64,000 nucleotides of DNA from NCBI GenBank assembly GCA_000004985.1, contig GG738845.1. One strand, given 5' to 3'. The stretch comes from Naegleria gruberi (lineage: Eukaryota). Every line of letters starts with the position of its first letter. Position 1 is the stretch's first letter. The notes under the pieces were generated by a model. It worked only from the letters and a program-made list of their open reading frames with translations. It was not told where the DNA came from and ran no database searches. Made by a program: the position numbers and the translations under genes. Shown here in pieces: positions 4,255-64,000 of the stretch.

Positions 4255-5499
4255 TCAATTGAATATTTCCCAAATACCTCTTAAAGTCTTGTGATGAACA
4301 GCATAGGGTATTTCTAATCCTCCTCTCAATAATTTGAGTACATCAATTCCCATCATCATACCCACCATTCCTGAAATTTCTCCCAAAAGACCTTCAATGC
4401 TAGAGGTTAACACTTCTGTAATTCTGTTCTCATTGAGAGAGGAGTAAGCAAACGAAATGACAACTACATCTTTTTCAACCTCAGTCAATTTGACGATAGA
4501 GAGTTTTGATTCCCACCGAACTGAAACAAGAGACGGATCTTCAATTGTTGGCTTCAATCGAGTAGTGACATATTTTGTAAGGACGAAATAATTATCAACC
4601 TTGGAGATTGCAAAATTTGTTTCTGCAAACACTGGTGGGACTGTACCAGGTTCGTGGAAAGAAACTTGCAACCCGAATCTAGCATCTCGTTCCACTGGAG
4701 CTAGTGGTACTCTAAAGAATAAACTAATGGTGCCTCCATAACCAGTTGCATTGGCTGCCAATAGGTTCTGAGTATCATTATTAAATACTACAATTTCCAA
4801 AATGAAAATAATGGTTAGCTTTTCATTGATTCAACCAAACCTACCGTAACAAGTAAAATATTGGCCATTTTGTTCAATCTCTGTTATGGTGTGAGGAAGT
4901 TCAAACTGCTCAATAGTTCCATACTCTTGATTGACTGTTGTTGAATACATTAGTGTAAGATTACAATAATCACAATCCAAAGCAGCATTCCAATTACAAA
5001 CCGTAATAGCAGGATAGTAGAGAGGTAAAGACTCCACATACGCCAATGAGGTTGTTGGATTACCCAAAGAAGTGACATAATTACTAATGGAATTACTGAT
5101 ATACCAAGCTACAAACACAATGACCATAATCCATGCCACAAATGTAATGGCTTCTCCTATTGTAAAATTGAATCTTAATCTTCCTTTTTTTGCCTTTACA
5201 ACCACCAGATCTTCATCCTTTTCCATCTCTACTGGTTTCTTATCATTCTGTAAAGGTATGTGAATAGGAGAAGCATTCTCTTTAAATTCACCACTCGAAT
5301 CAGCTAATTGCAATCCAGAAACTATTGAAATAGAGAGTGGTATTTGTGTTTTCGTCTCATATTCCGATAAGCTCTGTTGCTTAATCAATGGTGACTCACT
5401 ATTTACACTACTAGCTGTTGAAAATTCCCTACTATTTTGTCTTCCGTTTATTGTTGATGATGAGAGAGTGGAGAGATTCCCCCTACTTTGTTCATTCAT
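4255..5499 (-). CDS. DEG/ENaC (degenerin / epithelial Na+ channel)-like two-TM channel subunit with a short extracellular domain; 2 exons, about 57-nt intron near 4788..4844
   Basis: ORFs 4831..5499 and 4255..4800 join in frame through GTAGGT...TTGTAG, giving ...FTCY-V-FNNDTQ. TM1 is ITFVAWIMVIVFVAWYI, followed by the family hallmark YYPAITVCNWN (compare FPAVTLCN). There is a Cys-rich ectodomain. The pre-TM2/TM2 segment LLGEISGMVGMMMGIDVLKLL aligns to LLSDIGGQLGLWIGASVL. Confidence 0.5.
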
Positions 5500-59916: not shown

Positions 59917-60959
59917 TTGAAAATGCAAACGTTTCAATTTCCTCAATTTAAAAAAATGTCAACAGCATTAAGGATAGCGATTGCTCATCGCAATTCTTCA
60001 CCAATTCAACAACAGCAGCAACAATTAGTTCAAGAAGTACCTCCTTCATCACCTCAAGTAACCTCTCCCTCCCAAACCTTCTACTATGCCAATGGTTCTA
60101 AAGTTTCCAACACACAGAACATTCATGTTTGCAGAATGAAGAATGGATTGGAACATACACCCAATGGAAAGGAAAAGGACGCCTTCAAGTACTATTGTCC
60201 TATATGTATGATGTATTTTAAGAGTAAGTAATTGCGTTCCGAAGTTAGTTCGGTTTATCATGTGATGATAAATTGTAGAAATTTTCAAAGTCGACTGTTG
60301 TTCACAATATATATGTAAATACTGTATGGAAGATATACTGGATCATGGTAAAACAGCTAAATGTTCCTCACTGAGTTGTCCCTATTGTTTAAAGGAACAA
60401 GTAAGGTTTAAACCAGTTGATAAACGAGAACAAGTAAGAAGCTATTCGGATGAGATGCCAAAACCTTCTCCCTCTTCCAAATTGAATAATACGATAATAT
60501 CTAACAACTCGAATAGTTTGAAAACACATGAAACTCCTTATTTCCACAGAAGATGCTAAAGTTGAAGCTCAACGATGCTCCTCTCCTCTCTCAATAAGAA
60601 GTAACAGAATTATTCCACTCAGAAAGACAAAGAGTGAATCTCAAATGGTCATGTTTGATGATTTGTTCTATATTGAAAATGAGCAACCACTGGAAAGACA
60701 ATTGTCATTCTCATCACAAGATGATGGTCCAAAATTGTTTGAAACTAAATTGGACACTACGTTTATTAATGTTGTTCCTGCTAGAAAACAGAGATCAGCA
60801 CCATCAACTTTAGGAACAAGAAAGCATGTTAAGAAACAGCCATTATTTGATAATAACTTTAAAAAGGAAAACGACATTATTCGGGACGAATTTACTCCTA
60901 GAGCTTCTCAAAAGAAAAAGTTTAGAAATCCTGTAAAGGAATGTTGTTGCTTCCAATAA
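59917..60959 (+). CDS. putative multi-exon Cys-rich zinc-finger protein (RING/treble-clef-like); the gene model is uncertain
   Basis: Exon 1 ends ...KYYCPICMMYFK. A|GTAAGT...AATTGTAG|AA (about 55 nt) joins it in frame to ...IFKVDCCSQYICKYCMEDILDHGKTAKCSSLSCPYCLKEQV. The third track ORF (60528..60959) overlaps in another frame. It could be joined by a very short GTTTGA...CCACAG intron (about 34 nt). Confidence 0.35.
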
Positions 60960-60964
60960 TAAAT

Positions 60965-63900
60965 TTATTGAGAATCACCACCTGTTTGATCAATTAGGTC
61001 TGTTTCACTATTGTCATGATCATTTTCTTGATTTGTAATATGTTGGGTGCGATTAGAATTTTCGACATGGTGAACATGTTCATCTATCAAATTCATGGCA
61101 TTCAAACTATTCCTCAATGATGGGGTATTACTAATAACACTTGGTTGCTTGTCGAAATATTCTTCAGTATTATTCAAATCCAATGTTGTTCCAACAACAT
61201 CAGGTGGTTGCAGAACAGTAGTCAATTGTGGTGAGCCACTAGTTGCTGGTTGCTGTTGTTGCTGAAGCTGTGAATCAGTAGTAGGAAGAGTGGCTTTAGA
61301 ATTCTTTCTGTTGAGATTCTTCGTTGATGGCATTCTAGTGTTGTTTGGTTGTTTTTGAGGTGTTTCTTGTTTCTTCAAAGACTTCTTTTTCAACCTCGCC
61401 TCCTCTTGTTGCAAATAATAATTGAGAGATTCAACTATTGGACCAGATGGATTACTAATTCTTCCTTCTTTCTGTTTCTTATCAACAAATTTAACAAGTT
61501 TAACATGGAAACACTCTTGTTGAGTTTCTCTATATGAATTCTTATGATACCATTCTGGTTTCAACCAACTTCCCATCGGATCAAATATTATAGAATAGTA
61601 ATAACGACACGAAGTATCTGTCAGTCTCTTAACCATGAATGCAGTTTTAATCTCAGCTCTATATTTGTTGATTGGCATTTTAGGATTGTTGATGGAACGA
61701 GATATGCACAAGTAAACTTCTTCCTTTCTATCGTATTGACAACTGTAGGCATGAACTAGCTCTCTATTCTTGTGTGGGAATGGCATTTTGAATATTTCAT
61801 GACAAACAGTATGCGCATACTTTCCAACTTTAACGAAATCAATTTGTTGAGATTGAATCAAATGGTCAATCCTGGTACCATACGAGTCGTGGTCAATCCA
61901 GGCATTGAATAATTCGTGATGTGTACAATTCATATCATAAATGTACTTGATTTGCACGTGACGTCTTGAATTAGAAAGGTGATTGTGAGAAACCTCTGGT
62001 GCGAAATAAGTTTTACCACCAGAAGTTTCGAATATAACTCTCCACTGATTCAAATCTTGTAATAATTCCTTTCTATTATCAAATTCCCAATCATTAAATC
62101 TGTGATTTTCCAAATTAATAATTTCAGTTCCACACTTTTCACAAAACAGAATAAATTCCTTCTCATCATCTTCATCTGCACTTGATGATTCTCCTTCTCC
62201 TTTCATGTAGGATCTCAACTGTTCTGGATTTCTCTTCTTTTGTTCCAAGAATTTGCTGAAAATTTTTGATTTGACAAAGCTTGGAAATTCGTGTTTGAGT
62301 GCCCTAACAGACAAATTGTAAAAGTTTTCAAATAGGTCAACTGGACAATTATCTTCATTACATTCATTGAATTTAATTTGAAATGGTCCAAATGCATTCT
62401 TCATGTATTTAAATTTCAATCTCTTTGGAGCATTTTCTGCCAAATATTCCTTCACTAAATGCTTAGCAATTCCAAATCTAACTGGAGAGCTTGCATTATC
62501 CTTGTACTCAATGGCGTGTAAATAGAAAGCCAAAATATCAGCTAATTGTATGAATATTGAAATGTATTGTAATGATTCAACCTTCATAACTACACTTACA
62601 GTTTGGAGTTCCATTTACGAATTCCTTAAACAAATTGATAAATGCTGTATCTTGAACAATTTTAAGGAATTGATAAGTTTCGTGTGAGTGTAAATTCACA
62701 TTTGAGAACATGGCTTCGAATGATTGGTCTGAAACTGTCATTAAAGAAATATCATGGTGTTTCTCTTTCAATAAATAAGTTGAAACCACAACTGATGGTT
62801 TAATTTCCAAACCTTTCACTTCATCAAATTCGAAAATATCGTACACTCTTTCATAAGTCTTTCTGCTGACTTGAATTCTTCCAGGTATTCCCTTCGATTC
62901 CATCACTTGGCAAATTGTCATTATCAATTTTCAAATTACAAAACTTACAATTAGCTATAGTTAATGTTTCTCCCCACAAATCATATGCAAATTTGAGATT
63001 ACCAATACATCCAGCAATAACTGGTCCTGAGTGAATTCCAATTCTAATGTTCAAATTCTTATTTTGTTGCGCATTATATTTTGTAATGACTGATAACATG
63101 TGAGTGGCGAATAGAATAACCTTTTCGGGGTGATCTGACGATTGGTTTGACATGCCTCCTACACAGAAGTAGGCATCTCCAATTGTCTTTATCTTTTCCA
63201 ATCCGAACATGTGTGTTAAATTATCAAATCCATTCACAATGTGATTCAATAATTGAATGAGCTCAGTAGCTGTCAAAGTTGATGACATTTTGGTAAATCC
63301 AACCATGTCACTATACAGACAAGTAACATCATCAAACTTTTCTGAAATACATGTTTCACCAGCTTTCAATCTCACAGCAATACGTTCAGGCAAAATATTT
63401 AACAAAAGAGAATCAGATTTCCTGCGTTCCTCTTCGAGTAGAATTTTAAACTTCTTCTCAAATGTAATGTCTCGCAACAAGATGGTGACTAGATTCTTAT
63501 TTTCGTACATGTAAACAGACAGAGAAACTCCAACAGCTACAGTCGAACCATTCTTTCTCAATGCTTCTAGTTCAACATATTCGCCAATGGATTGCTTGGC
63601 TGAGAACATGACATCGAGGAGCAATTTCAATTTACTAGCTTGTTCACCTTCACCAAAGAGTGCCATTACATCTGTTATTTCATTCATGGCGTATCCTAAC
63701 ATTTTACAAGCAGATTGATTAATAATTTCAACGAGAGTCGTGTTGGTTTTCAAGACAATCACTCCATCAACTGCTCCATCTAAAATAGCTTGTGATTTGC
63801 TTGTTTTACTCTTTTCCTTACGCTCTCCCAAATTGTAAAACAATACGAATTGTTTAATTTCTTCAATATGTGAAATTGTGTCAGTTGGTAGCATGTTCAA

Positions 63901-64000
63901 TAATCTTCTCAAGTGATTGCATTCCTCAGTGTATTTGTTTAATTGAGAATAGTGAAAGAAGCAATTAATGAATATCAAGAATAAGGCTATGATGTAGATG
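60965..64000 (-). CDS. multidomain signalling protein: PAS sensor, class III adenylyl/guanylyl cyclase catalytic domain, RGS domain and C-terminal START-like lipid-binding domain. 5' end is beyond the window. Introns about 62906..62948 and 62542..62599.
   Basis: The frame is open to nt 64000. PAS: AILDGAVDGVIVLKTNTTLVEIINQSACKMLGYAMNEITD. Cyclase: FDDVTCLYSDMVGFTKMSS...IRIGIHSGPVIAGCIG...YDLWGETLTIAN. T|GTAAGT..CCAAG|TG joins it to LMESKGIPGRIQVSRKTYERVY (track ORF 62577..62927). T|GTAAGT..CAATTAG|CT joins that to the RGS core FKEFVNGTPN-S-DILAFYLHAIEYK...AKHLVKEYLAENAP. START-like region: FKMPFPHKNRELVHAYSC...FDPMGSWLKPEWYHKNSY. Confidence 0.7.

Follow-up and report, generated by a model that had tools for sequence, protein, structure and literature searches.

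The closest described relatives of the gene considered here are the membrane PAS-cyclases of Heterolobosea, proteins of around 1600 amino acids from genomes that each encode at least 80 cyclases. The gene lies on the minus strand at positions 60965-64000 of a 64,000-nucleotide stretch of Naegleria gruberi DNA (contig GG738845.1; this whole stretch is referred to as the window, and its G+C content is 33.8%). Homologue searches returned more than 5000 matches, the top ones being PAS-cyclases of this size from Naegleria, Willaertia and Acrasis, and the window protein is a member of Naegleria's very large family of them. The likeness takes in a long N-terminus with a weak TPR_TmcB match and several transmembrane segments, a PAS_9 domain, a signalling helix and a class III catalytic domain with its KTIGDAYF and FSDMVGFT motifs. 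The window protein differs from the family in a C-terminal extension of about 550 amino acids, consisting of RGS and START domains and a tail, and in having threonine and leucine where nearly all paralogues have the catalytic asparagine and arginine.

Other known systems resemble it in part. In mycobacterial Rv1625c each chain holds the full set of six catalytic residues, and the homodimer is active. Homodimeric class IIIa cyclases of the Rv1625c type (PDB 5o5k, 4p2f) have, like the window protein, one catalytic domain per chain after a membrane anchor, and the match is around 150 bits. The C-terminal extension has counterparts in heterolobosean RGS-START proteins (N. gruberi P0153; Acrasis kona P0132, P0134 and P0138), which show the same two-domain order and are matched end to end in both domains. 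The RGS-homology domains that are not GTPase-activating proteins (GAPs), namely those of SNX13, SNX25, GRK2 and axin, also count among the closest known systems. DLC1-3 (STARD12, STARD13 and STARD8) are an analogy only; they too end in a START domain that comes after a domain regulating GTPases, and the StarD13 START is among the structural matches, but their regulator is a RhoGAP and not an RGS domain, they have no cyclase, and they belong to the animal lineage.

The corrected gene product has 1775 amino acids and is, in order, an N-terminal region with approximately five hydrophobic segments, a PAS domain, a signalling helix, a class III cyclase, an RGS-homology domain, an acidic linker with CxxC and HxH motifs, a START domain and a disordered tail. 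It represents a variant, confined to one lineage, of a receptor-cyclase family that is already known. The best explanation of its features overall, which we hold with a probability of about 0.6, is that it would be a C1-like half-cyclase with a lipid-binding, Gα- or cyclase-docking cassette as its regulator or targeter. No description of a cyclase-RGS-START protein was found in the literature, and the fusion is not mentioned in the N. fowleri catalogue of Bosch et al. 2022 (PMC9283941), which lists 80 cyclases, 13 Gα subunits and more than 100 RGS proteins. Residue numbers below refer to the 977-codon part of the protein encoded in the window, unless the 1775-residue protein is named.

The catalytic domain

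The class III catalytic domain (62766..63345, residues 219-397; split by intron 1) scores 171.2 bits against Pfam Guanylate_cyc (PF00211; cut-off 21.9), over profile positions 3-182 of 183, and is full-length only once the gene is spliced. Motif scanning and alignment with adenylyl cyclases place both metal-binding aspartates, the first in LYSDMVGFT (63292..63318) and the second in KTIGDAY (63169..63189). The latter motif also supplies the adenine-specifying lysine, and together with the aspartate of AYDLWG this gives a substrate pair of the adenylyl type (Lys/Asp for ATP, as opposed to Glu/Cys for GTP). The transition-state asparagine and arginine, N1025 and R1029 in AC2, whose role in class III cyclases has been described (PMC4886424), are absent. 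In the motif that spans intron 1, YDLWGETLTIAN followed by LME (62898..62985), the substrate aspartate is kept and the asparagine and arginine are changed to threonine and leucine; the window protein reads ETLTIANLMES where around 40 paralogues have DTINxASRMES.

This set of residues resembles that of the C1 domains of mammalian adenylyl cyclases (AC9, AC5, AC8), which have the two metal aspartates and no catalytic arginine. The best PDB match of the domain is AC9 C1, with 116 bits against 94 bits for C2, and the ANLME stretch is identical to that of AC9 C1. The window domain differs from a mammalian C1 in that it additionally has the C2-type lysine and is the single cyclase domain of its chain, and so the other half must come from a second chain.

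The same two positions are non-canonical in the closest relatives, which have T/L (P0003), N/A (P0002), T/K (P0007) and I/K (P0008), and canonical in the more distant RGS-START cyclases P0004 and P0005, which have both the asparagine and the arginine. P0007 (N. lovaniensis, 1619 amino acids) and P0008 (Willaertia magna, 1582 amino acids) are the nearest cyclase-domain relatives without an RGS-START tail, and have the signature AGCIG.LKF..DLWGET in common. Since these two proteins are non-canonical and yet tail-less, the loss of the asparagine and arginine may, judging from these alignments, pre-date the capture of the cassette or be independent of it. The cassette is present on the canonical P0004 and P0005 as well, a hint of repeated fusion or of loss of the cassette.

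As annotated, the N. lovaniensis orthologue P0002 is without the TIG of the KTIGDAYF metal motif. At its locus (L001, contig PYSW02000029.1) two close introns at 5100-5235 flank an 8-nucleotide piece, AACAATTG, that would encode TIG, but is 1 nucleotide out of frame with canonical GT/AG borders. Either the micro-exon has been modelled wrongly, or there is a sequencing error, or the catalytic site has decayed.

Upstream of the catalytic domain, the PAS domain (63463..63768, residues 78-179) matches Pfam PAS_9 (PF13426) with 48 bits (cut-off 27, E 1.7e-12); no LOV-type NCRFLQ motif was seen in it on reading the sequence. The signalling helix that leads from PAS to cyclase (63346..63444, residues 186-218) has a weak C-terminal HNOBA match at 186-211 (12.9 bits, below cut-off) and aligns with the pre-catalytic helix of AC5, the ANP receptor and Rv1625c-type chains.

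The RGS-START cassette

The RGS-homology domain (62249..62669, residues 430-550; split by intron 2) scores 27.4 bits against Pfam RGS (PF00615; gathering cut-off 23.9) in the spliced protein, over profile positions 2-117 of 117, and the nine helices of the RGS fold were found. The closest relatives score 13.7-23.6 bits, below the cut-off, and ankyrin-fused and stand-alone cassettes 40-74 bits. When a profile of the C-terminal module was compared with the PDB, it matched RGS8, RGS5, RGS16, the RH domain of GRK2 and axin (best E 7.8e-5), and STARD10 weakly.

Alignment of RGS8, taken from the PDB matches, with 17 family members allowed the contact residues to be compared. At the positions of N88, N128, D163 and R167 of RGS4 the window protein has I, K, E and S, the lysine lying in the motif RLKFK (62408..62422). 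The roles of these residues, and the importance of Asn128, reportedly come from the RGS4-Giα1 structure of Tesmer in 1997. A lysine at the Asn128 position, in the context RLKFK or HKLKF, is invariant in the cyclase- or ankyrin-fused members (8/8), where the positions of N88, D163 and R167 are variable. The stand-alone or BLUF-bearing members keep the asparagine in the motif E-[VI/L]-N-[IVL] (10/10), and most of them keep the aspartate. The stand-alone proteins thus differ from the fused Naegleria subgroup, which has the RLKFK/HKLKF motif, a CxxC...HxH pair and, in most members, a MKNAFGPF insert, where the former retain the asparagine of E-[VI]-N-[IV]. Because of the lysine and the variable contact residues, the RGS-homology domain of the fused subgroup looks, from its alignment, re-purposed for binding and not for catalysis.

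The START domain (61385..62092, residues about 603-838) was recognised by other means. The AlphaFold2 model of the exon C product (predicted local distance difference test score 79.5, predicted template-modelling score 0.65) has a helix-grip fold like that of solved START domains, and a Foldseek search with it gave STARD10 (E 4.3e-13, TM-score 0.73), followed by CERT, STARD5, PCTP and StAR; the whole C-terminal module of the orthologue was modelled with a local score of 78. Pfam START scores of relatives are 24-51 bits against a cut-off of 22, with P0002-P0005 at 24-36 bits. The identity of the domain as START is thus established through the scores of its relatives and the predicted fold of the window sequence itself. 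The initial annotation had named the order PAS, class III cyclase, RGS and START from the letters alone, and this order holds, the first three domains by Pfam and the fourth by predicted fold and relatives. In searches of the spliced protein with hidden Markov models PAS_9, Guanylate_cyc and RGS stood above their cut-offs, but Pfam START (PF01852) gave no match at E<=1.

A segment with a C-x2-C and an H-x-H motif (61979..62143, residues 586-640) lies at the entry to START, the H-x-H being located inside an insertion of three residues. The eight cyclase- or ankyrin-fused members (P0002-P0005, P0121, P0122, P0124 and P0271) all have the two motifs, which are absent from six stand-alone ones, and relatives give weak Zn_Ribbon_1 matches in Pfam. 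This pattern suggests a putative lineage-specific Cys2-His2 metal site at the START entry. The protein ends in a low-complexity tail of about 138 residues rich in Q, N, S and T (60968..61381, residues 840-977); the aligned Naegleria relatives P0002-P0005 have no such tail and end within approximately 20 residues of START.

The distribution of the cassette was determined by an exhaustive profile search of 1.84 billion representative sequences, which gave 201 proteins at E<=1e-3. P0001, the model of this gene in the public N. gruberi annotation, was found at E 4e-205, and stand-alone members were matched at profile positions 15-420. Many of the 201 are around 425 amino acids long and cover the profile from the start of RGS to the end of START; named matches of this length come from Acrasis kona, N. 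gruberi ("regulator of G-protein signaling 8-like protein") and Willaertia magna. Pfam confirmed both RGS and START in the cassette relatives. Ankyrin repeats stand N-terminal to RGS-START in P0122, P0124 and P0271, and this ankyrin-fused form occurs in N. lovaniensis and N. fowleri. START and ankyrin have been noted as recurrent partners of RGS in divergent protists (de Mendoza et al. 2014, PMC3971589). RGS-START is followed by BLUF in P0147 (metagenome, 681 amino acids) and P0154 (Willaertia magna, 644 amino acids), and so in Heterolobosea the cassette is also coupled to a blue-light photoreceptor.

All named carriers of the cassette with a cyclase are from Naegleria, and to these is added one unnamed cyclase-RGS fragment, P0123. 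The long profile matches checked outside Naegleria were multi-START, FYVE or MENTAL proteins and no cyclases. The architecture is therefore as unusual as the initial annotation had supposed. Judged by this distribution, RGS-START is a pre-existing heterolobosean cassette that was captured by a cyclase, and the protein is not a case of three modules being put together here.

Proposed mechanism and alternatives

By analogy with other class III enzymes, the protein would dimerise through its cyclase domains, and its substrate would be ATP, because both metal aspartates and the adenine-type Lys/Asp pair are kept. A homodimer would hold two crippled sites owing to the threonine and leucine at the transition-state positions. 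Most likely the protein would pair with one of its many canonical paralogues and form the C1-like half of the heterodimer, or else would be a low-activity enzyme; of the two sites in the heterodimer one would be good and the other degenerate, as in mammalian adenylyl cyclases. The C-terminal cassette would then be a regulatory or targeting module, in which START is predicted to bind a hydrophobic ligand or a membrane lipid. Since the asparagine that canonical GAPs insert beside the catalytic glutamine of Gα is lost, the RGS-homology domain would more probably be a docking surface, for Gα-GTP or for the cyclase itself, than a GTPase accelerator. There is a precedent for contact between RGS proteins and cyclases in mammals, where RGS2 inhibits ADCY3, ADCY5 and ADCY6 (review PMC8935726).

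Alternatively, the cyclase could be fully active and the RGS domain a working GAP, so that one chain would switch off the G protein, sense lipid via START and make cAMP or cGMP. The initial annotation had proposed that the turning-off of G proteins, the sensing of lipid and the synthesis of cyclic nucleotides are coupled directly in this way. Naegleria does have many Gα subunits and working RGS GAPs (PMC9283941), the metal-binding and substrate-specifying residues of the cyclase are intact, and the distant RGS-START cyclases P0004 and P0005 have the canonical asparagine and arginine. The residues of the window protein itself speak against it: the RGS domain has lysine at the Asn128 position and its equivalents of N88, D163 and R167 are not conserved, although stand-alone relatives keep the asparagine and aspartate, and in the cyclase the transition-state pair is replaced. 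With the cassette also ready-made before its capture, the proposed coupling is not borne out, and we regard this alternative as unlikely.

A second alternative is that the catalytic domain is dead and acts as a dimerisation scaffold presenting PAS and RGS-START, perhaps titrating or regulating active paralogues. The loss of the transition-state residues here, their alteration in P0002, P0003, P0007 and P0008 and the missing TIG in the model of the N. lovaniensis orthologue, near its out-of-frame micro-exon, would all suit such a role. Strict retention in the window protein of both metal aspartates and of the Lys/Asp pair, on the other hand, would be unexpected for a non-catalytic domain and fits a C1-like half-site; a pseudo-cyclase is thus rather improbable.

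The half-cyclase reading can also be taken further. In this stronger form, an adenylyl cyclase built as a pseudo-symmetric heterodimer would have evolved independently of animal C1/C2, with the window protein as its regulatory half; the RGS-homology domain of the protein would be an effector-type docking site for activated Gα, and START, stapled by the Cys2-His2 site, would gate the output according to membrane lipid. If this were true, a single chain would integrate the state of the G protein with lipid composition, and the protein would have no described counterpart. This form is speculative, and we consider it improbable.

Several points weigh against the half-cyclase with a docking cassette. 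Some RGS proteins with serine at the Asn128 position still act as GAPs, and a GAP bearing lysine there is possible on sequence grounds. No complementary C2-like paralogue, with the asparagine and arginine present and the metal aspartates absent, was found among the approximately 65 relatives inspected, which leaves the heterodimer idea without a specific partner. The evidence for splicing is comparative throughout. Further, residual activity of a homodimer is possible by analogy with cyclases in which loss of the asparagine alone is tolerated; Rv1900c is an active class III cyclase despite this loss (PMC4886424).

A cyclase carrying an RGS-homology-START cassette offers a concrete experimental handle, as does a small clade with half-site-like catalytic centres. 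They make testable whether protist cyclases heterodimerise, whether RGS-like domains serve as Gα docking modules, and what START domains sense in a lineage that includes the pathogen N. fowleri, where P0004 is a related gene.

Gene structure and the public model

The minus strand of the window at 60965-64000 is, on comparison of frames and orthologues, the 3' 55% of a single gene of N. gruberi that is interrupted by two short introns. The list of open reading frames (ORFs) contains three here (62851..63978, 62577..62927 and 60965..62614), and the unspliced frame ends at codon 383. Removal of intron 1 (62948..62906, 43 nucleotides) and intron 2 (62599..62542, 58 nucleotides), both GTAAGT...AG and both of phase 1, leaves a single open frame, 977 codons long, that runs from the edge of the window as far as the stop codon at 60965-60967. 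The peptide across the first junction is then ...DLWGETLTIAN followed by LMESKGIPGRIQVS, and that across the second ...FKEFVNGTPN followed by SDILAFYLHAIEYK.

The exons so defined are A (62949..64000), truncated at its 5' end by the window edge and open to that edge, which encodes the final transmembrane helix, the PAS domain, the signalling helix and, as far as ...TLTIAN, the cyclase domain; B (62600..62905; 306 nucleotides, 102 codons), which completes the cyclase domain and, after a linker, begins RGS with its first third; and C (60965..62541), taken from the ORF list and the splice reconstruction, with the remainder of RGS, the acidic linker, the CxxC/HxH segment, START, the low-complexity tail and the stop codon. 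No second copy or tandem paralogue of the gene was found in the window by tblastn.

The window has no excess of the GTAAGT hexamer (18 against 25 expected), which was therefore dropped as splice evidence by itself. Splicing was accepted on three other grounds. First, the frame is restored at both junctions, and alignment of the protein with its four Naegleria relatives P0002-P0005 shows no gaps over either. Second, the Guanylate_cyc and RGS domains of Pfam straddle the ORF breaks and gain coverage, RGS being matched only after splicing. Third, the N. lovaniensis orthologue has neither intron; its locus L001 is a continuous ORF across both junction sites, with uninterrupted DNA encoding DLWGETLNIA-QA-MESKGFPGRIQ and KEYLSGSA-FL-DMLVFYQHAMEY, and in the DNA alignment it is gapped exactly at the positions of both N. 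gruberi introns. The initial annotation had called a single gene whose ORFs are joined in frame by two ultra-short GTAAGT introns, and had given both junction peptides exactly as obtained here. It was also right that the cyclase and RGS motifs become complete only after splicing, and in its guess that more N-terminal sequence, or a transmembrane region, might lie beyond the window.

Where the two can be aligned, the spliced product is 100% identical to the 1673-residue N. gruberi "predicted protein" P0001, exon A matching from residue 799 of that model; the next relatives are P0002 (67%), P0003 (53%) and P0005 (43%) of N. lovaniensis and P0004 (44%) of N. fowleri. P0001 reads ...DLWGETLTIAN followed by SDILAFYLHAIEYK, with TLTIAN joined straight to SDILAFY. 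The model has used the donor of intron 1 with the acceptor of intron 2 and has skipped the 306-nucleotide middle exon, which keeps the frame since both introns are of phase 1, but costs the cyclase domain its last quarter and RGS its first third. The Guanylate_cyc match shrinks to profile positions 3-134 of 183, with 134.9 bits, and Pfam finds no RGS match in P0001.

It is very unlikely that this skipped form is the real or major product and that the 306-nucleotide segment is intronic or alternatively included. The phase of the introns and the length of the exon do permit in-frame skipping, and the public annotation uses this join, but the segment is an open frame of 102 codons, 69% identical in amino acids to the continuous ORF of the orthologue P0002, and two domains are damaged without it. 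On the evidence of the sequence comparisons, the public N. gruberi model of this gene is wrong. That the three listed ORFs, which do lie in different frames, are genes in their own right or the pieces of a frameshifted pseudogene is next to impossible, given that the frame is restored when the GTAAGT...AG segment at each break is taken out, that two domains cross the breaks, and that N. lovaniensis and N. fowleri have the same architecture in one ORF.

The splice reconstruction thus improves on the public annotation. Since the reference model skips an exon and so destroys RGS, domain censuses of the N. gruberi proteome miss the architecture. P0001 also supplies 798 residues upstream of the window, with four more hydrophobic segments; those of the 1775-residue protein are at 53-71, 335-353, 520-538, 597-615 and 795-813. 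The window holds the end of the fifth of these transmembrane segments, IYIIALFLIFINCFF (63955..63999, minus strand; Kyte-Doolittle peak 2.64 for residues 795-813).

Abnormal ends, just before or within the DLWG motif, are likewise found in at least three further public cyclase models from Naegleria. P0010, P0049 and P0053, Naegleria-type cyclase models from public or ENA sources, come to an abrupt end or run into nonsense there (AGWYVLFFTVL, FAYDCKCF and FAYVCF). This points to truncation of further cyclase family members in public annotations by short introns that went unrecognised.

On the plus strand, an ORF at 60528..60959 finishes 5 nucleotides from the stop codon of the minus-strand gene (60965). 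The two genes converge, and with this spacing their 3' untranslated regions must overlap or be nearly absent. The plus-strand neighbour also has a GTAAGT at 60224, adjoining an ORF break.

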